A stretch of DNA of 64,000 nucleotides from a phage. The notes beneath the pieces were generated by a model. That model was not told the DNA's origin. It saw only the letters and a program-made list of their open reading frames with translations, and searched no databases. The DNA lies in the sequence record OZ346222.1. The stretch is one strand, 5' to 3'. Shown piece by piece: positions 5,948-61,315 of the stretch. Position 1 is the first letter of the stretch, and the number at the start of each line of letters is the position of its first letter. Position numbers and translations under genes: made by a program.

Positions 5948-6140
5948 GTACTCGATCTGTTTTTCATTTCAAAGACCTGATTTTCTGAAAATTTTTCTCG
6001 ATAAATTTCTTAGTACTCGATCTGTTTTTCATTTCAAAGACCTGATTTTCTGAAAATTTTTCTCGATAAATTTCTTAGTACTCGATCTGTTTTTCGTTTT
6101 CTGAATCGGATTTTCTGGAAATCGTTCCAGCTCTCGACCT
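5948..6140. repeat. tandem direct repeat, about 64-bp unit, two full copies plus a diverged third
   Basis: Unit GTACTCGATCTGTTTTTCATTTCAAAGACCTGATTTTCTGAAAATTTTTCTCGATAAATTTCTTA repeated exactly twice, third copy diverges. Confidence 0.8.
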
Positions 6141-6305
6141 GAAATTTTTGGGGACGAAATCGATTTTTCGTTTTCAGAAATGGATTTTTAAAATTTCTAT
6201 ATGGGAATATTTTATGGGATACTGTTTTATAGGAAATTGTTACGGAGGGTAATTAGCATGCTAATTAAATTTATTAAATGCGAGGAGTTCTCATTTAGAA
6301 TTTTG

Positions 6306-6495
6306 AATGATAATCATTCTCGTTTGCAGAATAACGGGCAGGCCCGGTGATTGTCTCCCGGCCCCTACTGCCCCGGCTTGTTATTATAGTATCACACAGG
6401 ACAAAGAAAGCAAGGATTTTTTGCATAAATTTTTAAATGATAATGATAACCGTTCTCATTTTATGCAGCGCCCATCCCCGGTGGTTGTCTCCCCC
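6306..6495. repeat. two about 60-bp direct repeats ending in GC-rich core CCGGTG(A/G)TTGTCTCCC
   Basis: AATGATAAT...TTGCAG...CCGGTGATTGTCTCCCGG at about 6306-6365 and a variant at about 6436-6495; third inverted copy of the core at about 16115-16139. Confidence 0.7.
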
Positions 6496-6716
6496 GTCAC
6501 CGGTGCCTGCCGTCCTTTCGATAGGTATATCGTGCCACCTGGCGGGGCCGCTGTCAACACTTTTCAAAAAATTTTTCTAACCTGATGCGCTAACCGCTGC
6601 AACCTGGCGGGGTCAGCCTGGCAGGACCTAACTGACCGGGTAGGAGAGAATGAAGGCTTGTAAACCTGGTGGGCCTATGCTACAGGATAGGTAACAATTG
6701 AAGAGGAGGTACAAAA

Positions 6717-13354: not shown

Positions 13355-13382
13355 TTGCATCATTCCCGACAATATGGATAAT
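13355..13382 (+). promoter_or_regulatory. sigma70-like promoter with 5' UTR hairpin
   Basis: TTGCAT, 16-nt spacer, GATAAT; hairpin GGGGGAGGCCCCC follows. Confidence 0.5.
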
Positions 13383-13439
13383 AAGAGTTGTCGAGGGGGA
13401 GGCCCCCAATCGTTGACCAGATAGATAGGAGTTAAAATC

Positions 13440-13724
13440 ATGGCTATTGTTACCGCTGGCGATGTAGTAGAAATGGAAGCAAAATACTTAAAAGCGGGTA
13501 TGCACATCCTACGGAATGATCAAGAGCTATTATTAACGATGGTTGACTATAATCACGGCCAGGATTATCCAAGCATCGACTACTTTTTTGAGTATGTTGA
13601 TGAAGAGTTGAAAGAGGATGAGGCCTATTGCGGTGAGTTCTGCAACTTCTTTTGTCCTGATGAGGTTGTAAAGGTTATTTATCAACCTGGCGTAGCTTTC
13701 CCGCTGCACGCTATCAATAAATAA
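13440..13724 (+). CDS. hypothetical protein (94 aa)
   Basis: Track ORF; TAGGAG RBS. Confidence 0.6.
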   Translation: MAIVTAGDVVEMEAKYLKAGMHILRNDQELLLTMVDYNHGQDYPSIDYFFEYVDEELKEDEAYCGEFCNFFCPDEVVKVIYQPGVAFPLHAINK

Positions 13725-13779
13725 ACCTGGCGGGGCCGAAAAGGCCCCCAATTATGAAAATAAAGAGAGGCAAATCATC

Positions 13780-14013
13780 ATGATGGAACAAATTAAACGC
13801 GCCGAGGCTATTAATGGCAACGTGATCTATTTTGTCAGCAAAAACGAAAAAGGCGTACCATATGCGGCAGTAATAGTACAACCTGACGGCGATTATTGGT
13901 TTACTGTGTACGGCGCTTATTCTTTTGGGCGTCCAGTGCATGATAAAATTTTGAAAGTAGCGAACCCTACCGGGAAGAATATCACAGCAGAAAAATTTTT
14001 TGAAAATAGTTGA
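13780..14013 (+). CDS. hypothetical protein (77 aa)
   Basis: Track ORF; AAGAGAGG RBS; preceded by hairpin GGGGCCGAAAAGGCCCC. Confidence 0.55.
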   Translation: MMEQIKRAEAINGNVIYFVSKNEKGVPYAAVIVQPDGDYWFTVYGAYSFGRPVHDKILKVANPTGKNITAEKFFENS

Positions 14014-14038
14014 CATGACCATATAAGACTGTAATATA
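14010..14038 (+). promoter_or_regulatory. sigma70-like promoter with 5' UTR hairpin
   Basis: TTGACA, 17-nt spacer, TAATAT; hairpin GGGGGCAACGAACCCC follows. Confidence 0.5.
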
Positions 14039-14088
14039 TAAATCAAAGGGGGCAACGAACCCCACCAACTACAAAGAGGATAAAAATC

Positions 14089-14268
14089 ATGGCTATTATT
14101 GCAAAGACTGAGATCATAGGCTTAGATTCTATTCTCCTCGCATATGAGGAAGCTATAGAAATGTATGTGGTTTCCTATGGTGAGTATATCCGTGAATATA
14201 AATCTATTGATCTGGCTTTTGAATGTTATATCCGCCAGGTTAATAAAGCGTACGATGATTATCGTTAA
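14089..14268 (+). CDS. hypothetical protein (59 aa)
   Basis: Below track cutoff; AAAGAGGATAAAAATC then ATG; open to TAA. Confidence 0.45.
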   Translation: MAIIAKTEIIGLDSILLAYEEAIEMYVVSYGEYIREYKSIDLAFECYIRQVNKAYDDYR

Positions 14269-14274
14269 AATAGT

Positions 14275-14303
14275 TTGACAACAGCCATCTTACAAAGCAT
14301 AAT
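14275..14303 (+). promoter_or_regulatory. sigma70-like promoter with 5' UTR hairpin
   Basis: TTGACA, 17-nt spacer, CATAAT; hairpin GGCGGTGGAATGGTCCGCCACC follows. Confidence 0.5.
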
Positions 14304-14355
14304 ACATAAGGCGGTGGAATGGTCCGCCACCTGGAACAAAGAAGAGGTAAACACC

Positions 14356-14601
14356 ATGAAAAGCAATAAAGGTTATAACGGTTACAAAAACAAAACTCAT
14401 TGGAATGTAAGCCTTTGGATTAATAACGATGAGTCATTGTACCGGTTGGCCCAAGGCTTTATTAACGCCAATGCTAATCGTAATGATGCGGCGCGGGATA
14501 TGATGCTTTTTCTGGAGCTAACCGGACAAGATAAGACCCTGGACGGCTTCAAGTACAGCACTACGGCGATCCGTGCCGCGATGGTTGGAATGAAACACTA
14601 A
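14356..14601 (+). CDS. hypothetical protein (81 aa)
   Basis: Track ORF 14275..14601 trimmed to ATG after AAGAAGAGG RBS. Confidence 0.55.
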   Translation: MKSNKGYNGYKNKTHWNVSLWINNDESLYRLAQGFINANANRNDAARDMMLFLELTGQDKTLDGFKYSTTAIRAAMVGMKH

Positions 14602-14792
14602 AAGCACATAGCTGCCTTACCCTGGGGCTGTGGTAGCGGCCCCATGAATAAGGTTACTAACAGAAGAGAATAAACACCATGAAACAGAAATTAATCGATG
14701 CAGTGATCTTGGTTATTGCCCTGGGTATTGGCCTGATTGCAACCATGTCTAATATGATCTTGTCTTCCAACGGTATCGGGTGAGGTTGGCAA

Positions 14793-15008
14793 ATGATCAC
14801 TAACAAAACAGGCAAAACGGAATTTTTACGCAACTTACAGATCGGCAAGCCTGAGATCTGGTACTGCACTAAAACACCGCGTGACGAAATGAAAGACTTC
14901 ACCGCCACGCTGCAACGGGTAAAGATATCTATCACGCAGAAAAAGGCCTTACTAGTGGTGGAAGGGGAGATCCCCCAAACCGTTGTTATAGTTGATCGTA
15001 CAGCATAG
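14793..15008 (+). CDS. hypothetical protein (71 aa)
   Basis: Track ORF. Confidence 0.5.
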   Translation: MITNKTGKTEFLRNLQIGKPEIWYCTKTPRDEMKDFTATLQRVKISITQKKALLVVEGEIPQTVVIVDRTA

Positions 15009-15099
15009 TTTAATTTATACAGATACCTGAAAATTAACCAACAAAGCATAAACAGGCGGTTACCGCCGCCTTAAACGTAGCAGAAAGAGGATAGGCACA

Positions 15100-15384
15100 A
15101 TGAAAAAGATGATCGCAGTGGTTACCCTGGTTGTTGGACTTAATGCGCCTGTAATGGCTAAAGAGCTGGCAAAAGAGGTTAATCTAACGGATATTCATGC
15201 CGTCAATCAAATCGGGGTTACTTATCGCTTATGCCTTGCCGCTAAAACTTTTAAGGACGGCACAACAGAGTACTACGGATTCGAGGGTATCCGGTGCGGT
15301 GAGCTTGCTCGCGACCTTAAGGAAGATCCAGACCTGGAGGATCTGCCCATAACCGTGAACGGGAAAACTTACGTGAACCGTTAA
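15100..15384 (+). CDS. secreted protein with N-terminal signal peptide (94 aa)
   Basis: Track ORF; AAAGAGGATAGG RBS; MKKMIAVVTLVVGLNAPVMA signal-like N-terminus. Confidence 0.6.
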   Translation: MKKMIAVVTLVVGLNAPVMAKELAKEVNLTDIHAVNQIGVTYRLCLAAKTFKDGTTEYYGFEGIRCGELARDLKEDPDLEDLPITVNGKTYVNR

Positions 15385-15529
15385 CCATGAGAAAGATAAT
15401 TATTACCATGGGGATCGTGGCGGCAATGTTGGCGATCTTTCCCTTTATGGTTAGGTATGTGCTGATTAATGTTGTCCTGGTAGTCAGCGATCTGGTGTTA
15501 TATATTAACTCATTGTTTTAGGCGCGATA

Positions 15530-15721
15530 ATGACAGCGGAAGAAGTTAAAAAAGTACTGGCGGTACTGCGTTATCATAATCATTGCAAGGTGAAGAATGA
15601 TCCTGATTATCTTGATTCATCCCTTGAAGAGGATACACTACAAGCCATAAGCAACATGCAAGAATTGCTTAAGCGTATGACAGAGAAAAACCGACCGGAC
15701 TACATAGGGGGTAAAATATGA
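15530..15721 (+). CDS. hypothetical protein (63 aa)
   Basis: Track ORF. Confidence 0.5.
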   Translation: MTAEEVKKVLAVLRYHNHCKVKNDPDYLDSSLEEDTLQAISNMQELLKRMTEKNRPDYIGGKI

Positions 15722-16029
15722 TCGCTATTACGCCAACCGTTTTAGATTGGTATCGGCAACGCATAGCGCCTCCGCTGGCTATCTTCAAAGATGCGGAAGC
15801 AAAACAACGCCGGATCTCAATACATGAGATCATCAACCTTAACGCTGGAGGCACACCATACCGCCCAGGACCTGGCCGTGAGATGGACAATACATTGGCG
15901 ATCCTGAAGATACGCCGTAAACGGTCCTCCCTTACGCTGGATTCATTACACACAATGCAGTCTCCGTTCCAGGTGACTGGGAAACGGATCGCCAGGTCCT
16001 GGACAAAGGCCAATGACCGGACCGTATAA
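15718..16029 (+). CDS. hypothetical protein (103 aa)
   Basis: Track ORF; ATGA coupling to upstream gene. Confidence 0.5.
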   Translation: MIAITPTVLDWYRQRIAPPLAIFKDAEAKQRRISIHEIINLNAGGTPYRPGPGREMDNTLAILKIRRKRSSLTLDSLHTMQSPFQVTGKRIARSWTKANDRTV

Positions 16030-16165
16030 ATAAAAAGTGTTTTGGTACTGATTTTGGGGTTGACTTGTTCGGCCCCTTTTGCTATTCTTATTAAACGGGC
16101 GGCACTTGGGAACAGGGGGAGACAATCACCAGGCCTGCCTGTCATATAAGAACTATAAAAACCGT

Positions 16166-16195
16166 TGACATCTGCCAGGGGGTGGGGTAACATTT
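16166..16195 (+). promoter_or_regulatory. sigma70-like promoter with 5' UTR hairpin
   Basis: TTGACA, 17-nt spacer, TAACAT; hairpin GGGGCAAAGGTGCCCC follows. Confidence 0.5.
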
Positions 16196-16247
16196 ATCTT
16201 GAAGGGGCAAAGGTGCCCACACAACAACCAGAAGAGAGGAAAACACT

Positions 16248-16520
16248 ATGTCAAGCTGGATTAATCAAGAAGTCGAATCACGTTTTAATGCTATTTGGGA
16301 TCTCATCGAAAAAGAAGACGGCACATCAAGCCCCTACCTCAACAATTTGGAATTCCATTTTGTGGAAGCGATGAACGCAGAACATGATCACGAAGGTGGT
16401 GCGGACGAGTTCGCTAAAGGGTATGGCTTCAACAATGCCAACGAAATGATCGAGGCGGTTGTACTCCAGGCTGAGGAAGATTATCAATTAAAAACGCTTG
16501 AATTCTGCCGCCGCAAGTAA
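16248..16520 (+). CDS. hypothetical acidic protein (90 aa)
   Basis: Track ORF; AGAGAGGAAAA RBS. Confidence 0.55.
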   Translation: MSSWINQEVESRFNAIWDLIEKEDGTSSPYLNNLEFHFVEAMNAEHDHEGGADEFAKGYGFNNANEMIEAVVLQAEEDYQLKTLEFCRRK

Positions 16521-16580
16521 TAAGATAATGACACGGGCCGGGAGGCCCACTAATCAGAACCACACAAAGAGGTAAACATC

Positions 16581-16844
16581 ATGAAACGTCTTGATCAGCT
16601 TAAACTAGTTCAGTACATGGCCTACAAAGTTCTTGAAGTCCAAAAAGGTAGCAAAAAAGAGGTTTGCGAGAAAGCGTACAAGATCTTTACCCGTAAAAAA
16701 GATGATTGGATGTTACGCCAGACCAAAAAAGCCGATATCTTGGGGTACCTGGAAGAAGAGATCCGACTTGAAGAGCAAGAAGAGATCCGCCGCAGTGAGG
16801 CAGATTATCAGGCAGCCTGGGAAAACTGGATGAGCAACAAATAA
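16581..16844 (+). CDS. hypothetical protein (87 aa)
   Basis: Track ORF; AAAGAGG RBS; 5' UTR hairpin GGGCCGGGAGGCCC. Confidence 0.55.
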   Translation: MKRLDQLKLVQYMAYKVLEVQKGSKKEVCEKAYKIFTRKKDDWMLRQTKKADILGYLEEEIRLEEQEEIRRSEADYQAAWENWMSNK

Positions 16845-16910
16845 TACAACAAGTTGCACGATCAGGGGGCAATAAAGCCCCTTGATCACATAAAAATTAT
16901 GCTATCCTTG

Positions 16911-16940
16911 GTTGACAAGGATCGGCAGTTTTGCTATATT
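16911..16940 (+). promoter_or_regulatory. sigma70-like promoter
   Basis: TTGACA, 17-nt spacer, TATATT. Confidence 0.55.
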
Positions 16941-16988
16941 CTTTTTGAAGGGAAGTTGTAAGAAAATTAACTAAGAGGTAAAAACACC

Positions 16989-17408
16989 ATGAACATTAAA
17001 TCTAATAATCCGGCATATAGCTTTGATAACGCTTTTTGTCACGGTCCGGCGGCGAAAGGATTCGAAATCGATGGTAAACTAATTATTGTCAATGTTGACG
17101 GGGAAGAGGTTGCAGTATATCCGGTGGCAGACGTAAAAAGCCGTTTACAATGCCGCATGGATGTTACCGCCTATCAGCTTGATCCGGTCCGCATAGTTGC
17201 CCTGGTCCTGGAAGAAGAAATTAAAGCCATGCACCATAGCAACAGATTTATTGGTGACGCGCAGGATAATATGAAAGTATGCCGCCATAAAGTTAATGAA
17301 GTGCTTAAAGAGTACGGCTATAAAGATCTTATGATCAAACGTGAGGAAAAATTCCGCTACCGTAACGACCTGGCAAATCGGATTTTTGAAATATACGAAT
17401 CATTATAA
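16989..17408 (+). CDS. hypothetical protein (139 aa)
   Basis: Track ORF; TAAGAGG RBS. Confidence 0.6.
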   Translation: MNIKSNNPAYSFDNAFCHGPAAKGFEIDGKLIIVNVDGEEVAVYPVADVKSRLQCRMDVTAYQLDPVRIVALVLEEEIKAMHHSNRFIGDAQDNMKVCRHKVNEVLKEYGYKDLMIKREEKFRYRNDLANRIFEIYESL

Positions 17409-17426
17409 TTTTTTAACTGAATTATC

Positions 17427-17452
17427 AAGGGGCTTAGGCCCCTTTCTTTTTG
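17427..17452 (+). terminator. intrinsic terminator closing the rightward early array
   Basis: AAGGGGC tta GGCCCCTT followed by TCTTTTT. Confidence 0.7.
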
Positions 17453-17889
17453 TCTGCTCTTCCCCCTACCATAAACGGCCCTACCTGGCAAGTGGAATAA
17501 TTGACGAGCCATCAATCCCACACACTGTACAAATATACATGTAAAATAACTATTGCATAACCTTTCATTGTGTGGTAGCGGTGCTATTTTTTACCTGTTT
17601 TCCTTCCAAAATTGCACGTAATGCAGCTATTGCACAAAATTTAACCTGATGCACATCTCCAATATCCTGTCAACAACTAAAAATCTTTATAAGTCATACA
17701 CTTACACAGCATCGAAAGCGTGTTCTACGCGAAAAATCGAGTATAACTATAGCCGCCAGATCTCAGAATTCACGTACGCACGCCATTCTATAGCCTGCAA
17801 AGTATTTATTCCAACCACAGAATAACGGAATAGTCAATACCTGAATAAAATAATTATTCGTTTAAACTGCATAACATAAATCAGCTCAG

Positions 17890-19410
17890 GTGTCAACATT
17901 TTTCGTAAACAGTCTGAAATTGTCACTGTGAGTTATCATAAACAGAGAAATCTTTAGTCGTATAATGTTTACTGTACGTTACTATACTGACTGGAATCAT
18001 TAGATGACTAATAGAAAGATAAGAAATAATTAACAATACAATTATTTTACCTGTAACAATAAGACAACTATGCAAACGAATGGCATGGCGCGACGGAGTC
18101 GCGACATAATATAAAAGCAGTAACCATCACCCCCGTGATGGTTTGTCTGCAATCTATTAATCAGATCATAGTTGCCTTGTATTCAGTTAATCATGACATA
18201 ATAAGCAAGGCAACTATAGATCTGCTAATAGTTGCCCTGCTTTTATATTATGTCATATATTATTAACTTGTTAATTGTTAACTTGCTAATTGTTTTCATG
18301 CAAACGAATGTCATGGCTTATCCTATCTGTGTAAACAGTTAAGGTGTAAACTATCCAGGCGTAAACAGTCTATGCGGGAACAATCTATACGTGAACAGTG
18401 AAACATGAAATAATAACAGTCGTTATTGTGTCGAAAGTGTATAAGGTGTCAGACAAGTTTTTCTCCTCTTTGTCAAGTGCTGCATGAAAAATTTACAAGC
18501 TTGTATGGTAGCATTTTTGCGGCCCTGTTTACATTCAGCGATGTATGTATAATCCTTGTTGTGTGGGCGTTTAGACGTCTAGACGGTCAGAAGTCTGCAG
18601 GTTAATACCTAATCTATCGGCTGCTAACTATATCCCACACAAATAGTAAGAAATATAATTGTTATGTGCGTAAACAGTAACTCATGTTATCAATCCCTGT
18701 ATGTATCGCCAGTGGTGCGCATAATGGGTATTATGTTAAATTGCCCGTAATGATAACTATTCTCACAATGATAGGTATTCTCATTCACTCCCACAAGATA
18801 GGTTGCAAATGTTGTGCCACTGTGTGAACGGCCTAACCTATTAATTTGCCTCACTGCCTCGATATTTGAGAATTGTTATAAGAATGAGAAGTATTCCCAT
18901 TTCGTCCGCCTGGCAGCACTCCAGTCGCTACCGCTCATGACAGGGCAGAACTAGACCCTCTTCAGATATTTCTGGCTGACTCTTCAGGTCTGTGTGGGAA
19001 AAGCCAACCTCTCCGGCGGCGGGGAGGGGGTCAATTAAAAAAAATTACGTGGTGCATGAAGCGCTCTTCAGGTAAGGCATGTGTTATGGGATGAAACCCT
19101 CTTCAGGCAATGATATTTGTGGGTGTGATATTTGCTGGAAAGCCAGATATGACGGGACTCCTGGCGGGGCAGGGGTAGTACAGACAGGGAAAATATGGGG
19201 GATGTAGTTGGGGAAATTGATCAGACAGGTAGAGTATGGAATATGTTACAAGTATGTTAAATAGGGAGGATGAATATCTGCAGGATTTGTGTGTAAAATC
19301 AAAGACTTAAGTGGTGTTGTGGTATTTTCTATAAATAATTCAAGTTTAATAGGTAATATTTGTCTCTATCCACTTTGTGTGGTAAACAGATTCAGATGAA
19401 ATTGGTTTAC
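17890..19410. repeat. iteron field: at least 8 copies of GTAAACAG(T) in both orientations
   Basis: Copies at about 17899, 17969(-), 18332, 18361, 18527(-), 18669, 19381 plus variants GTAAACTA, GTGAACAG; no ORF of 60 aa or more in 17545-19823. Confidence 0.6.
18150..18320. repeat. nested inverted and direct repeats
   Basis: ATAGTTGCCTTG / CAAGGCAACTAT perfect 12-bp inverted repeat, ATGACATAATA / TATTATGTCAT inverted repeat, TAATTGTT direct repeats, flanked by direct repeats ATGCAAACGAATG(G/T)CATGGC at about 18070 and 18298. Confidence 0.7.
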
Positions 19411-19873
19411 AAGTGTATACATAATATACAAATTAAAGATACAAGAAACCCCCCTCCCCCTTCGGCTACCATTCACCTTTTCCTCTGACTGGTACTTAAA
19501 CACTTATTCAGACTCTTCAGGTTATCACCCATATATCATATGGCAGTGACTGGTGTCCTCCGGCCCCTCTTTCGTCACCCGTCCGCTTCGCCATGCTAAT
19601 GCCATAGCCAATGGTTCGGTTGTTCACTCTGTTCACTCAGGTGTATCTCCATACCCCTTCAAACCGAAGAGAACAGAAAACCCGAATTACTCGGTAAAAG
19701 AAAAGAGAAGAACTTAATTTTATCAGGATAGGCAAGAATGTCAAGGCATGACTGCTCACTAAACAAGCAAACAGTCATGTGTGGAAGGTAAGTGATTGTG
19801 GTGGTGGGAAATTTAGTTGAAAGATGTGTTATAGGTGCGCTTCCAGCACTTTGGCCGGGCAGCTAATTGTGTG

Positions 19874-20089
19874 TCAGTCCAGCGGTTCATCCTCTACTTC
19901 ACTGAAATCAATGTTCATGGTCTCCTCCCAACCATCGATCTCAGCACAAGAGTGGAGTTCTTTAGGGTTTACTCCCAAAGCCTCAGCAACAGAGTCTATA
20001 TTTAACACCTCTGGCAGGTATGATTCATCGAATTCAAGGTAAATCAGGCCACGAGTGTTGTCAGCTCCACCAAATATCTCTATCTTCAT
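19874..20089 (-). CDS. hypothetical acidic protein (71 aa)
   Basis: Track ORF; last gene of leftward array. Confidence 0.5.
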   Translation of the reverse strand: MKIEIFGGADNTRGLIYLEFDESYLPEVLNIDSVAEALGVNPKELHSCAEIDGWEETMNIDFSEVEDEPLD

Positions 20090-20210
20090 GAAATCTCCTC
20101 TGGAAATGAGAGTGTGAACAGGGTTTTATACGTTCTAATGCACAGGAATTATACACGTTTGCCTCTTCAGGCCATGCTTTAGCATGAGGAACCTGTGTGG
20201 GCTCGGTGCT

Positions 20211-20423
20211 TCATAGTCTACCACCTCTGAACTCTTCGTGCTCAGGCATAATAGAGAACCAGATATCTACGATGTCCTCCCACGTCAGGTCATCAGCCTC
20301 AGGATCTGTCTGGGACGAAGATGAAGAGTCCTCAGAATCTAAGTTTTCCTCTTTAACTGGCTCATCCAAGGGACATATGGTCACTCCTTCGGATGTCTCT
20401 TCAGATGCATGTGTGTTGATCAT
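20211..20423 (-). CDS. hypothetical acidic protein (70 aa)
   Basis: Track ORF. Confidence 0.5.
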   Translation of the reverse strand: MINTHASEETSEGVTICPLDEPVKEENLDSEDSSSSSQTDPEADDLTWEDIVDIWFSIMPEHEEFRGGRL

Positions 20424-20521
20424 GTTCCCCCCGTGAGTATTCCGGCAACAGCCGCTATGGAAGTAATGATCATCAGGATCACCACTAAAACTTCAGACAA
20501 TGTTCTCATTGTGTATTCCAT
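20420..20521 (-). CDS. hypothetical membrane micro-protein (33 aa)
   Basis: Below track cutoff; GGAGAA RBS; stop overlaps ATG of downstream gene (ATGA). Confidence 0.4.
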   Translation of the reverse strand: MEYTMRTLSEVLVVILMIITSIAAVAGILTGGT

Positions 20522-20783
20522 ATTCTCCAAACTGTGTGTGGATACTATCACGGGAGCGGTAATGTGTCAACAGCAACGCCGCGAGGGTTTGGTTAAAATC
20601 CGAGCGTATGGTGATTTGGGTCAAAACGGACGTGCGTTCTCGCTACGCTCGAAAGAGAGACTTGTTTGTAGAAAGCTCTTAAACGCTCTGTAACGAGATT
20701 ATCTGTCCAAGGTATGCAATCGTGCACCAGATAAAGAAAAGGACGCCACAGAGCGTCCTAGGTGTCTTAAATTTGATATTTTG

Positions 20784-55449: not shown

Positions 55450-55800
55450 TCAGTAGATGTTTTGTTTAATCTCTATTCCAAACTTTTTAAACGAGTCAGC
55501 TGCAAGCATGAATTTACGAGCCGCTGATGGGTTAGAAGTATGCACGAAAATCTTCACGTTGTCAACTACAGGAGGCTTACCAAATACAAATTTTTCCTCC
55601 AACATAGATAGGCAATCGTACCCTTCGAATACCTCTCCAAGGTCGTTGTCCATATGCCACTCAGAAACGCGTCTGTAGAGCTTTCTATTATCGTTAATAA
55701 AATCTATAAACTCGGAGGAATTCTTTAGCCAAACAGCGTCTTGGAGCCCGTACTTTGACGGATCTCTCAAGTCATCTAGCCACACAATCAACTTCTTCAT
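55450..55800 (-). CDS. hypothetical protein (116 aa)
   Basis: Track ORF; ATGA coupling to rnlA. Confidence 0.5.
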   Translation of the reverse strand: MKKLIVWLDDLRDPSKYGLQDAVWLKNSSEFIDFINDNRKLYRRVSEWHMDNDLGEVFEGYDCLSMLEEKFVFGKPPVVDNVKIFVHTSNPSAARKFMLAADSFKKFGIEIKQNIY

Positions 55801-56732
55801 TGCATATAGTTCTCGTTGTGGAAATAGTAATCGAGTATCTCACGGCGTTCCTGCTCCAGGAGGCAGTTCCATACATCCTCTGTGTAGTTGTTACGAATGA
55901 AGTTTACCATGCCGTAAAACTCTTCGTCAACACGTTTAAAGATATCATCATCCCAAATCTTCCAAGCTTTACCCCTCATTACGGCCTTCCGTGCCAGATA
56001 GTATGGAGACTTAATCTTCAGCTGCAGATCATAAGGGTAGTAAGGCTTACGAATCATATACCCTTCACCTCTTGTTTCTGCAGCTAATTCTTTTGCATAA
56101 CTGAACGGAATTTCACGCACAGTGTGAGGACGTTTTGCACCAAGGTATTTGGCAATCCCATCTAAAGCTGCTTCTGGTAGCATTATTCCAGAATCATTAT
56201 ATCTGCAACCTATCAAATATGCGCCACGATCTTCCTGAACAATATGCGGATCTGAGGGGTGACAAATTTCAAACATGAATGTCATATTTTCATTGCCCAT
56301 AACCTTCTTGATAAGATCTAAATTACCACATTGCTCCTGGATGGTTTCCTTTGCAAGGTTACAATATGGAGAATCAAGAGACCCGGTTGTTGAGAACAAT
56401 AGTTCACCTTTATGAGATGACACCACACCAAGGAATCCGTTCTTTTTCTCTACCGCCGTCACAAGCTTATTGTCAGGCAGGTTGGTGGAGTTTTCTCCCA
56501 AGTTAAACACTTTTGTAAAGGGCCATGCCACAACATTTCCTTCATTACCGACAACAATGCCTCGGCACTCCAGTAATCGAGGAGACAAATGCCATAAGTT
56601 GTTGTAGAATACTTTTCTGGCATATTTATAGATCTTTAACCCAAGGTCTGGGTGATATCTGCTGGTTACAAGACCTTTGTCAACTAGGTCGTCTGCATTA
56701 AAATACTTCATCATACGTTCCTCATTTGTCAT
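55797..56732 (-). CDS. rnlA: RNA ligase 1 (T4 RnlA-like)
   Basis: Track ORF; LLECRGIVV, VFNLGEN and lysine motif VEKKNGFLGVVS align with T4 RnlA LLECRGIMF, FFNLNEN, LTKEDGSLVSTY. Confidence 0.75.
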   Translation of the reverse strand: MTNEERMMKYFNADDLVDKGLVTSRYHPDLGLKIYKYARKVFYNNLWHLSPRLLECRGIVVGNEGNVVAWPFTKVFNLGENSTNLPDNKLVTAVEKKNGFLGVVSSHKGELLFSTTGSLDSPYCNLAKETIQEQCGNLDLIKKVMGNENMTFMFEICHPSDPHIVQEDRGAYLIGCRYNDSGIMLPEAALDGIAKYLGAKRPHTVREIPFSYAKELAAETRGEGYMIRKPYYPYDLQLKIKSPYYLARKAVMRGKAWKIWDDDIFKRVDEEFYGMVNFIRNNYTEDVWNCLLEQERREILDYYFHNENYMQ

Positions 56733-56775
56733 TTTGTCAGTCTATCCTGCCACACAAATAACCTAGTGTCAACAC

Positions 56776-56804
56776 TTGAAATTAACAAAACAGTTAGGTA
56801 TACT
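56776..56804 (+). promoter_or_regulatory. sigma70-like promoter in divergent intergenic region
   Basis: TTGAAA, 17-nt spacer, TATACT. Confidence 0.5.
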
Positions 56805-56832
56805 ATCGTTGAAATTAAAACGGAGGATTACT

Positions 56833-57243
56833 ATGTCTAAAATGCTATATATCGTGCGTGGTCTACCAGGGTCTGGCAAATCAACACTGGCAAGTGCGCT
56901 ATCTTTAGAAGGTCTGTATCCACATTTTGAGAACGACATGTTCTGGTACGACGATGATGGAAATTACAACTGGGATGCAAGTAAAGTAACACTTGCAGCA
57001 AAATGGTGCAAAGATAACGTAGAAGATATGATGCGTATGGGATACGACCGTATCGTGGTAAGTAATACATTTACAAAAGAAAAATATGTGCAAGAATATA
57101 TTGACATGGCGATCAGTCATGGGTATAGTTATACCGTAATCGTGGTTGAAAACCGCCATGGTAGTAAAAGCATTCATGATGTTCCAGACAGGGTTGTGGA
57201 TCGTATGGAACGCCAGCTTAAAAACTGCATTAAACTTAAATGA
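56833..57243 (+). CDS. polynucleotide 5'-kinase domain protein (T4 Pnk kinase-like)
   Basis: Track ORF 56776..57243 trimmed to ATG after ACGGAGGA RBS; P-loop GLPGSGKST as in T4 Pnkp. Confidence 0.65.
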   Translation: MSKMLYIVRGLPGSGKSTLASALSLEGLYPHFENDMFWYDDDGNYNWDASKVTLAAKWCKDNVEDMMRMGYDRIVVSNTFTKEKYVQEYIDMAISHGYSYTVIVVENRHGSKSIHDVPDRVVDRMERQLKNCIKLK

Positions 57244-57250
57244 GGAATGT

Positions 57251-57805
57251 ATGAAATACTTTGTAACAAGCGACACACACTTTCTCCACCAGCGGGTCAT
57301 GGAGTTTGACTCATGTCAAAAACACAGATCTCAGTATGATCACAATCTTGACAGTATGAATGCGGGGATCATCACCAAGTGGAACTCTGTTGTGTCACCT
57401 GCAGACACTGTGTTTCACTTAGGAGATATTGCGTGCACTAATGATAAGAATATTAACAAATTGCTCCCAGATGTTCTAAATATGTTGAACGGACATATTA
57501 TTCTTGTTCGTGGTAACCATGACACAAGGACGACTGTCAGAATTATGAAAGAGTTCGGTCATGAGGTTGTAGATTATTACGAGCTTCGCCACAACAAGAA
57601 TTTGATCTGTATGAGCCATTACCAGTTTGCAAAGTGGAACAGAAAGCCTCACGGATCGGTCCAACTGTTCGGTCATGCTCACGGAACCACACAGCAGTTG
57701 TTTGGCAGGCAGTTTGATGTCGGTTGGGATGTGTGGGGGAGACTCTTACCATTAGAAGAGGCATACCGTATTGCAATGAGTCTTGCTATTGACAGCGTGG
57801 AGTAA
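57251..57805 (+). CDS. calcineurin-like metallophosphoesterase
   Basis: Track ORF 57146..57805 trimmed to ATG after GAGGAA RBS; motifs DTHF, GDIA, GNHD, GHAHG. Confidence 0.7.
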   Translation: MKYFVTSDTHFLHQRVMEFDSCQKHRSQYDHNLDSMNAGIITKWNSVVSPADTVFHLGDIACTNDKNINKLLPDVLNMLNGHIILVRGNHDTRTTVRIMKEFGHEVVDYYELRHNKNLICMSHYQFAKWNRKPHGSVQLFGHAHGTTQQLFGRQFDVGWDVWGRLLPLEEAYRIAMSLAIDSVE

Positions 57806-57852
57806 TCCCTGCTATTTTAAAGAAAATTGCCACACAAGGAGAATCAGGAGAT

Positions 57853-58203
57853 ATGAAAGATGGGGATAAGCTGCTATATCTTAAAGTCCCCCTTGAAATA
57901 CTGTCTATGTCAAAAGTTTTGAATGACACAACTGGTGAGGTTGTTGTTCTTGACTTATATGACAAGATCGTATACTGCTACCTGCACAACTGGTATAAGC
58001 TTGGAGGAAATTCACGCTTCACGCCCAGCACAAGGAAAATTGCAGCAGATATTGGGATAAAGAAAACAAAAGCAGCAGCGTGCGTTAAAACTTTAGAATG
58101 TGCAGGAGTGGTTGAAATATCCACGCAAGGGAGAGGTAAAAGATGCACATTTTCCAAAGTTTTGCCACCAGAAGAAGTTATTCGAATGTCAACAACTGGT
58201 TAG
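57853..58203 (+). CDS. hypothetical protein (116 aa)
   Basis: Track ORF; AAGGAGAA RBS. Confidence 0.55.
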   Translation: MKDGDKLLYLKVPLEILSMSKVLNDTTGEVVVLDLYDKIVYCYLHNWYKLGGNSRFTPSTRKIAADIGIKKTKAAACVKTLECAGVVEISTQGRGKRCTFSKVLPPEEVIRMSTTG

Positions 58204-58278
58204 ACCAGTAAAAACTTAAATATCTGTACTATAAGGATTCGTATGTTTTATGTTCACTCTGGAACAGAGGTTAGTAAC

Positions 58279-58361
58279 TGTCCGTGATACGGACACTACT
58301 GTCCGTCACGCGGACACATCTGTCCGTAATACGGACACTAACTGTCCGTGATACGGACACA
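58279..58361. repeat. tandem array of four palindromic sites (C)TGTCCGT-N4/5-ACGGACA(C)
   Basis: Copies at about 58279, 58299, 58320, 58343; period 20-23 bp. Confidence 0.85.
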
Positions 58362-58499
58362 TAAAGAATATAACTAAAATAACTAAATAATAAAAAAAAT
58401 AAAAGATCTAGTACTTATGGTACTAAGTACATATACTTAACTTATGTAGAATATACTAGATCCTAAGTACCATGTTTTAAATTTATTACTTACTATAGG

Positions 58500-58860
58500 T
58501 AGTGTCGGCCCTTCATTGGCACTCGCCTACGAGGGGGCGAGATGCCGGGCCTCCTTGGTGCACACAATAACAGAAGTGCATACATGAAGGTCTGTTAACA
58601 TGTGTGGGAGCGAAGCGATAGCGCAGGCCAAAGGCCGAGCACTGATGTGGACCACCGACGAAAGCTTGCCAGCGCCGTAAGGAGTCGGTTGAGAGTCTCC
58701 CGCGCGAGCTTGGATGAAGTTTATGTGTGGAAACGGACAAGAAGGCCCCTAAATCGCTCCACAGCTATATAAACTATACCAGGTAAGGCAATCGCACCAG
58801 TTTGATAGAAAAGCTCGTTACAAAGCGATACAGTGAGTTTTTCTATAACTTGAAGAGGAG
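58500..58860 (+). other. GC-rich structured non-coding segment (candidate ncRNA; strand unknown)
   Basis: No rightward ORF; many short inverted repeats (GGCCC...GGGCC, CTCGCC...GGCGAG, TGCAC...GTGCA); GC content visibly above flanks. Confidence 0.3.
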
Positions 58861-61211: not shown

Positions 61212-61308
61212 GCTAGGTAAGCCCTTTGGCAAGGGCGAGGATTTTTAATCCTGAAAATAGACGAGGTAGTCGTTGAATACATAGGTGGTTCGATTCCATC
61301 ACCTAGCA
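61212..61308 (+). tRNA. atypical tRNA-like gene (possible anticodon TTT) with about 30-nt extra arm
   Basis: Acceptor GCTAGGT/ACCTAGC, D-arm GCCC/GGGC, 4-bp anticodon stem with loop TTTTTAA, T-arm GGTGG TTCGATT CCATC; no CCA; extra region too long for a canonical tRNA. Confidence 0.35.
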
Positions 61309-61315
61309 CCTTTTT

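Follow-up and report, generated by a model that had tools for sequence, protein, structure and literature searches.

A 459-bp direct terminal repeat in the gene-free region of a Vequintavirus genome, the probable junction of its two chromosome ends

The closest described counterparts of the region analysed here, a gene-free stretch of 2.4 kb (positions 17450-19820) within 64,000 nucleotides of phage DNA (sequence record OZ346222.1; the whole stretch is called the window below), are the chromosome ends of phage T7 and the termini reported for myoviruses of the Vequintavirinae and Stephanstirmvirinae. In the T7 record, as checked here, a 160-bp terminal repeat is followed by about 12 CCTAAAG units with a 13-bp period (175-341), copies of the same unit also occur inside the repeat and before its right-end copy, a leftward Escherichia coli promoter without a gene (A0) lies at 224, and phiOL and phiOR are placed near the ends. 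Among the myoviruses, 'terminal redundancies of 458 bp' were given for EdH4 and HdK5 (Korf 2019, PMC6563267), and KPP-1, of the sister genus Mydovirus, was assigned a 514-bp terminal repeat from twofold coverage and a PhageTerm call of 'T7 type' (PMC9862379). Schickermooser, a Phapecoctavirus, has a repeat of 328-329 bp. The rV5 genome paper had already drawn a grey "non-coding" box without open reading frames (ORFs) between genes 163 and 164, and its authors put the switch of GC skew at this box down to the changed direction of transcription (PMC3606486). The literature found on termini in the two subfamilies gives their lengths only, and no description was found of a cut motif, arrays, a palindrome, a promoter, or Fur-box-like sites.

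Judged by its sequence, the window comes from a Vequintavirus, that is, an rV5-like E. coli myovirus: the interval 17400-19900 was matched at 92-96% identity by 122 phage records, all of them Vequintavirus and 98 of them over the full length. The gene-free region is very probably the place where the linear genome's two physical ends are joined, containing a direct terminal repeat of 459 bp (18452-18910) and the terminase cut sites, with the mature left end starting at 18452 and the mature right end stopping at 18910. It is largely a known kind of feature, the short exact direct terminal repeat of the T7 type, rather than a new origin, and it is the same feature as the published termini of HdK5, EdH4, Schickermooser and KPP-1. 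The length of the repeat and the "non-coding" box were already in print; what is new here is the cut motif, the variable arrays, the palindrome cassette, the conserved promoter without a gene, and the Fur-box-like sites. An earlier note on the same DNA, made from the letters alone, missed this organising principle.

Identical sequence at both ends of the virion DNA was found in close relatives rather than in this isolate. The HdK5 record begins and ends with the same 459 bp (100% identity), which correspond to 18910..18452 of the window; this repeat and that of the window are 90-96% identical and occupy the equivalent non-coding gap. Ten or more records deposited by several submitters start precisely at one or other of the two edges, which supports fixed, unpermuted ends: Pr121LW, ECP2309, EcoIv14a_Aya and YN3 begin at 18452, and HdK5, EdH4 and four 'bov' phages begin at 18910. 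Fixed ends are also indicated by the PhageTerm call for KPP-1, whose 514-bp repeat sits in the equivalent convergent non-coding gap, and by the record of CM1, in which positions 1728-2709 hold two copies of the 459-bp repeat with 64 bp of duplicated left flank between them, the breakpoint lying exactly at ...CGTCCGCC (18910). The duplication in CM1 is an assembly artefact typical of genomes with terminal repeats. In the window the repeat is found once, because the assembly collapsed it. The anatomy was compared in an alignment of 16 close relatives, which are the relatives counted below. Conservation within the repeat was 0.87-0.97, while the DNA adjoining it on the outside was the most variable of the region and rich in insertions and deletions, identity falling to 0.38-0.6 just outside the left edge and to 0.53 at 18925-18950 on the right.

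Both edges of the repeat carry a shared motif, TGYYW^RRC (the caret marks the edge), on opposite strands: TGTCA^GAC on the top strand at the left edge, and TGCCA^GGC on the bottom strand at the right edge. On the left, TGTCA^GACAAGTTT is invariant in 16/16 relatives despite the hypervariable DNA upstream of it; TGTCAGACAAGTTT, the boundary sequence, is just as constant (16/16), and TGTCA-type units always end in TGTCA^GACAAG. The right cut site, together with a hypervariable sub-terminal segment, occupies 18911-18957, where the bottom strand reads TGCTGCCA^GGCGGAC and one or two GGCAGCACTCC(A/T)GT units are present. The edges of the KPP-1 repeat (TGCTA^GAC and TGCTA^AAC) and of the Schickermooser repeat (TGTTGA^AGC and TGCTT^AAC) show the same pattern. 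The same motif on opposite strands at both edges fits staggered nicks that are then filled in, which is the classical scheme proposed for T7 concatemers.

Immediately before the left cut site, at 18426-18451 on the plus strand, stand phased TGTCA-type units spaced about 9-11 bp apart, the last of which is the 5' half of the cut site itself; relatives carry 2-6 TRTGTCA units, also at 9-11 bp. A TGTCA half-site about once per helical turn upstream of the cut looks, from sequence, like a recognition array for terminase. Phased copies of short elements adjoin the cleavage point in lambda cosB (R sites), P1 pac (hexamers) and SPP1 (pacL/pacR), and the units described here likewise end at the cut. 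Those phages, however, make cohesive ends or package by the headful mechanism and do not form exact terminal repeats, and the binding of terminase in the present case is putative. As a motif enriched across the whole window, TRTGTCA was discarded (23 copies found, 21 expected); its significance lies solely in the phased clustering at the cut. Scans for more divergent relatives using conserved patterns (IMG/VR and metagenome contigs, 5 loci each) and protein-anchored retrieval (3 loci) gave enough loci to define a second clade, referred to as clade B (loci L003, L026, L028, L030 and L033), but too few for strong covariation statistics. In clade B the TGTCA-type unit becomes TATGCCTA and the boundary sequence changes along with it, a joint change that we read as possible co-variation of site and enzyme.

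In the mechanism proposed, terminase would nick the top strand at TGTCA^GAC (18451/18452) during packaging and the bottom strand at TGCCA^GGC (18911/18910). Nicks placed 459 bp apart on opposite strands would leave 5' overhangs on both daughter ends, and a polymerase would fill these in, duplicating the repeat so that each packaged genome would receive a full copy, as in the Watson/T7-type scheme. The packaging machinery (the small terminase or a partner) would load on, or recognise, the TGTCA half-sites in their phased series and probably also the GTRAAYAGT units described below, and the right-end cut would be marked in this way. Accessory elements of the junction may be seen in the palindrome, in the leftward promoter without a gene and in the CTCTTCAGG copies, analogous to the processing hairpin of T7 and to its A0, phiOL and phiOR. 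We infer the nicking chemistry and the pairing of proteins with repeats, while the positions of the ends, the extent of the repeat, the conservation of boundaries and promoter, and the anatomy and variability of the arrays are matters of observation. The two gene arrays converge on the region because transcription runs out towards two physical ends. Going by the rV5 gene map (PMC3606486), the gene for the large terminase subunit should lie outside the 64-kb window.

Short-period arrays directly flank the terminal repeat. Upstream of the TGTCA units, at 18331-18398 on the plus strand, is a sub-terminal GTRAAYAGT array with a period of 15-16 bp and five units, one of them degenerate. Relatives carry from one unit (CM1, WM) to ten (rV5); the spacers drift but the 9-nt core persists, and nowhere in the region is variability greater than in this array (identity 0.38-0.6). 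The related 8-mer GTAAACAG had been counted at least eight times by the earlier note, and its enrichment was confirmed (7 copies in the window against 2.06 expected, a number reached in 0 of 100 shuffles), but not the count, as the region holds six exact copies, at 17905, 18331, 18361, 18670 and 19382 on the plus strand and at 18525 on the minus strand. With the relaxed form GTRAACAG, 9 of the 11 copies in the window fall within 17905-20121. Two GTAAACAG copies lie inside the repeat (18525-18532, minus; 18670-18677, plus), with identities of 0.98 and 0.96 among relatives. The dispersed copy at 17905 is identical in 15/16 relatives (identity 0.99, against 0.85 in its flanks) and belongs to a group of elements at 17905-17973 in which an inverted ATAAACAG / CAGTAAAC pair flanks a promoter-like TAAACA-16-TATAAT (17939-17966, score 10/12). 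Together with the conserved island at 17668-17756, this copy lies in some 600 bp of conserved sequence between the terminator of the rightward genes and the palindrome cassette. The earlier note was right in that this is cis-acting non-coding DNA with iteron-like, putatively protein-binding repeats. In the comparison with related genomes that it had suggested, the repeats proved to be conserved (0.96-0.99 for the dispersed copies, with the core of the array kept).

To the right of the repeat, at 18958-19107, are four copies of CTCTTCAG(G) on the plus strand, each followed by TGTG(T/G)GG, with more at 19513 and 20163. The CTCTTCAGG copies are identical in 15-16 of the 16 relatives and are retained in clade B; elsewhere in the window the sequence is coding, CCT GAA GAG specifying Pro-Glu-Glu. 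A role of CTCTTCAGG as a phage promoter element was considered and dropped, as it stands at no consistent distance from -10-like hexamers. TGTGTGG is clustered a second time (7 copies) at 55780-58730, at a divergent promoter region where the GC skew switches back, and may there belong to a promoter or operator motif of the phage that the terminal region shares.

On the outer side of the GTRAAYAGT array lies a palindrome cassette (18070-18317), bounded by 20-bp direct repeats of ATGCAAACGAATGKCATGGC (18070-18089 and 18298-18317, family D7). Within it is a composite palindrome (18103-18254) with perfect 18-nt outer arms and nested inverted repeats of 12 and 15 nt (I1, I16, I7). The perfect 12-bp inverted repeat reported by the earlier note is present, at 18168-18179 / 18206-18217, nested in the larger perfect 18-bp one at 18103-18120 / 18237-18254. 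As single-stranded DNA the palindrome folds with -56.4 kcal/mol (z = -9.5), and its arms are identical in 15/16 relatives. In the record of FV3, precisely the DNA enclosed by the 20-bp direct repeats is missing (equivalent to 18090-18297 of the window), either by natural deletion through recombination of the repeats or by loss during cloning or assembly; unless it was lost in the latter way, the palindrome would seem to be dispensable. Perfect inverted repeats also lie 200-500 bp outside the same edge of the repeat in Phapecoctavirus (15 nt; z = -7.9) and in KPP-1/Mydovirus (21 nt). An inverted repeat in this position recalls, by analogy, the hairpin intermediate in the processing of T7 concatemers that was reportedly described by Chung, Nardone and Hinkle in 1990.

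On the right flank, a sigma-70-type promoter and its leader occupy 19600-19744 on the minus strand, with TTGACA-16-TAAAAT at 19744-19717 (score 11/12) and no gene downstream. Just upstream of the promoter is a hairpin, CATGACTG...CAGTCATG (19747-19779), preceded in the leftward direction by CCACACA. At the position of this hairpin, clade B has a hairpin of unrelated sequence (ACCTACC...GGTAGGT). Clade B shares only four islands with the window: 17668-17756 (island 1, 73% identity, function unknown), 18853-18911 (the right end of the repeat), 19091-19189 (island 3, 77-81% identity) and 19588-19728. The last of these covers the promoter, which in clade B is TTGCAA-17-TATAAT, kept over a diverged spacer, and the leader, which is the best-conserved block between the clades. 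The invariant core of the leader is a tandem GTGAACAGnGTGAACA (19620-19636), that is, the array motif in inverted orientation. Clade B carries an inserted ORF resembling HNH-AP2 homing endonucleases, with the motif EIDHIDRDPSNNHLDNLR...YWRASI (8716-9486 in L003), which separates conserved islands 3 and 4 of the non-coding region and lies on the strand opposite to the promoter.

With these elements, the rV5-type junction is, by analogy, the T7 parts list at a larger scale. Each system has a direct terminal repeat that is short and exact, abutted by a regular, short-period array with a core of 7-9 nt, of which extra copies occur inside the repeat; each has an outward, host-type promoter without a gene just inside the left end (A0 at 224 in T7, 19744-19717 here); and in each an inverted repeat stands some 200 bp beyond one edge of the terminal repeat, in T7 that of the reported hairpin intermediate. 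The differences are also plain. This is a myovirus of 135-140 kb without its own RNA polymerase, whereas T7 is a podovirus of 40 kb; the repeat is three times longer and the non-coding span (2.4 kb) far larger; the array stands before the right-end copy of the repeat instead of after the left-end copy; the motif sequences are unrelated; and the genes point towards the ends, whereas the early genes of T7 read inward from the left end.

Several points weigh against the identification of the region as the chromosome-end junction. The ends of this phage were placed from relatives that are 90-96% identical, and for one Vequintavirus assembled from a cocktail, PhageTerm called headful packaging with partial permutation (PMC13211470), although we gave this call less weight than the concordant records. 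The cut motif is short; chance was estimated at ~5e-4 per independent boundary, and the left boundaries of different phages are homologous, hence not independent. The binders of GTRAAYAGT, TGTCA or CTCTTCAGG are only putative. The array tolerates from 1 to 10 units and FV3 lacks the cassette, so that neither is strictly required in its full form.

The earlier note had offered the region as a candidate replication origin; on this reading the 15-bp GTAAACAG units would be the iterons of an initiator, and AT-rich DNA and the palindrome the site of unwinding or priming. The tandem array is indeed regular with a conserved 9-nt core and adjoining AT-rich DNA, as in the iteron origins of lambda (ori), P1 (oriR) and R6K; patches of 24-29% GC occur at 17950-18050 and 18200-18350, the palindrome is strongly structured, and the replisome is T7-like, phiOL and phiOR being annotated near the ends of T7, which has secondary origins there. 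This support is generic. The period of 15-16 bp differs from the ~19-22 bp of iteron origins; the number of units is unconstrained, varying from 1 to 10 among phages ~95% identical elsewhere; no DnaA box (≤1 mismatch) was found in 13382-20536 and no recognisable initiator or DNA-binding domain in the flanking genes, and the AT-rich patches are not specific to origins and do not amount to a defined unwinding element. Moreover, the array ends within ~50 bp of the mapped DNA end, and the cumulative GC skew peaks in the region, which is the polarity of a terminus and matches the convergent transcription. We consider an origin unlikely, though one would be compatible with a chromosome end and is a possible secondary role. 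A stop or pause in DNA injection, as in the first-step transfer of T5, had also been suggested. Only the end-adjacent position and the presence of repeats and palindromes speak for it; no inward-reading genes or promoters adjoin either end, the genes on both sides point outwards, and no report of two-step transfer in this group was found in the literature, so that this suggestion is left unsupported and highly improbable. Searches of the literature for the non-coding region as an origin, or for its transcription, returned nothing specific.

A regulatory or non-coding RNA locus, in which the leftward promoter makes a functional RNA and the GTRAACAG and Fur-box-like sites are operators, appears doubtful, though somewhat less so than an origin. 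The promoter has been kept in two clades despite divergence of its spacer, the leader is so well conserved, GTAAACAG-type half-sites bracket a second promoter-like site (17939-17973), and Fur-box-like palindromes are conserved across genera. The RNA itself found no support: the region matched no Rfam family at the gathering threshold or at E <= 1, the leader folded no better than shuffled sequence (z = -0.78), RNAalifold gave a covariation term of +0.92 (a penalty) with 1 of 27 pairs compensated, and no conserved ORF was found downstream of the promoter. A structured leader RNA was accordingly rejected on minimum free energy, RNAalifold and Rfam alike. In one hairpin, CCGAG/TTCGG against CCAGAA/TTCTGG gives an apparent compensation by eye which automatic alignment did not recover. 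That the conserved core of the leader consists of a tandem DNA motif points to a binding site for protein and not to an RNA, and a protein recognising GTRAACAG would then seem to have sites inside the repeat and on both sides of it. The 'regulatory hub' of the earlier note was too vague to stand as a claim, but the conserved promoter and the Fur-box-like sites do exist. It might be argued, finally, that most of the region is non-functional spacer, where end-adjacent DNA accumulates slippage minisatellites, palindromes and insertions and only the edges of the repeat matter. The hypervariable, indel-rich DNA just outside both edges, the missing cassette of FV3, and the homing-endonuclease gene tolerated in clade B agree with this. 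However, most of the 2.4 kb is conserved at 0.88-0.98, equal to or above the neighbouring genes, the cores of the arrays are kept while their spacers drift, dispersed copies are conserved above their flanks, and other genera, although their sequences are unrelated, show the same arrangement of inverted repeat, arrays, terminal repeat and promoter, all of which makes a mere spacer as improbable as an origin.

The terminal repeat also contains a conserved 16-mer, GATATTTGAGAATTGT (18861-18876), and three Fur-box-like palindromes, AATGAKAAnnnTTCYCA, at 18749, 18767 and 18883 (18746-18899, repeat family D2). The palindromes were scored against a 19-bp consensus, GATAATGATAATCATTATC, and a 7-1-7 core, TGATAATnATTATCA, and not against a curated matrix. 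Against this E. coli Fur consensus, the copies of AATGATAAyNATTCTCATT in the repeat scored 14/19 and 13/19, with one weaker, and 12/14 and 11/14 for the core; by such matching they fit the Fur box. Matches of at least 15/19 to the same consensus numbered five across the window, against 0.35 expected. The same motif occurs in the terminal repeats of a Phapecoctavirus (locus L005, 17/19), Schickermooser and KPP-1, and, in the Justusliebigvirus VEcB, near the start of the record (17/19). The Fur-like loci are at 18746-18899 in the window, at 7445-7660 in L005, 72-270 in L021, 75-300 in L024 and 2400-3160 in L023, and in three of four genera (KPP-1 excepted) the motif adjoins GATATTTGRG. Since conserved near-consensus Fur boxes lie close to one edge of the repeat (in Justusliebigvirus, near the start of the record) in four genera of two subfamilies (rV5-like and phi92/phAPEC8-like), Fur may be recruited to the chromosome ends, as an architectural co-factor of end cutting and packaging, like IHF at lambda cos, or as an iron-sensing switch of transcription in the vicinity of the ends. 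This is a tentative possibility that we hold at less than even, and no paper linking Fur boxes to the ends of lytic phages was found in the literature. If it holds, the maturation or expression of the phage genome would be tied to the iron status of the host.

A second gene-free stretch, at 5990-6680, is conserved across Vequintavirus and contains two repeat units of ~135 bp, each headed by a perfect copy of the Fur-box-like motif AATGATAAYNNTTCTC (6306-6321 and 6442-6457) and continuing with gcag...cccggtgRttgtctccc. The 92-aa ORF called in this stretch looks spurious, and the units at 6306 and 6442 could, from their sequence, be Fur-controlled small transcripts; if Fur does act at these copies, its control of the phage would extend beyond the chromosome ends.

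The position of the ends is also of practical interest. Many of the ~120 Vequintavirus genomes are of phages proposed for therapy or biocontrol, most of the records start at arbitrary positions, and in some of them the terminal region has been given spurious small genes. Known ends (18452 and 18910) and the TGYYW^RRC motif would allow such genomes to be oriented consistently and false ORFs to be removed, and would support rational engineering by indicating sites for insertion and sequences to keep for packaging. The junction is a second example of the T7 type, at the scale of a myovirus, and its natural variants in array copy number, together with the palindrome deletion of FV3, are ready material on the function of such arrays, a question still open for T7.

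The absence of genes, claimed by the earlier note for ORFs of 60 aa or more, was upheld: none is contained within 17450-19820, and a single 67-aa ORF with a GTG start (17341-17544) overlaps the left edge, where it covers the terminator together with the end of the last genuine gene. Of 18 smaller ORFs (at least 30 aa), 14 could be scored for coding character, the other four being affected by long insertion columns in the alignment. None of the 14 was both conserved and codon-biased, their substitutions showing no third-position bias, whereas two flanking control genes gave 12/17/98 and 12/9/72 substitutions by codon position (98/127 and 72/93 in the third). The best-looking candidate, a 39-aa ORF at 19517-19636 on the minus strand, had a mild bias (10/6/23) but is not conserved in the divergent clade B, and was rejected. 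The gene arrays are convergent, as had been stated: genes of the plus strand stop at 17408, where an intrinsic terminator at 17427-17444 (stem-loop AAGGGGCTTAGGCCCCTT, then a T run) closes the rightward array, and genes of the minus strand stop at 19874. The same terminator is annotated in the records of Murica, Alma and HdK5.

The GC skew reaches +0.44 to +0.72 at 19100-19350, the plus strand being strongly G-rich and the minus strand C-rich and G-poor. On the left flank (17450-17850, plus strand) the strand copied in the transcript is C-rich and G-poor, with skew down to -0.47. These two tracts, each read in the direction of its own gene array, would possibly suit Rho-dependent termination before the repeat. 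The flanking proteins, considered as candidate binders of the repeats, yielded no informative domain: none of their Pfam matches reached the curated cut-off, and PHROG assigns them to families of 'unknown function'. The last gene before the terminal region (16989-17408) specifies a 139-aa protein of unknown function that is ~89% identical in Phapecoctavirus, a member of another subfamily, where its gene is also the last before the terminal non-coding region. As the surrounding DNA is otherwise unrelated, the module adjoining the chromosome end appears to have been exchanged.

Among the database records, 19 entries labelled 'Campylobacter phage' (MG0656xx, with C. jejuni given as host) are 87-92% identical to the region. 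One of these, C7, is flagged UNVERIFIED and classified in Vequintavirus. Probably the hosts have been mislabelled, or else the preparations contained contaminants. A search with ARAGORN placed the tRNAs of the window solely at 60.7-61.6 kb, with none in the region. One of them, at 61212-61310, is a 99-nt tRNA with a four-base anticodon (atcc), no amino acid assigned, and an Rfam tRNA score of only 35.5 bits, and it may be intron-bearing, frameshift-suppressor-like or degenerate.

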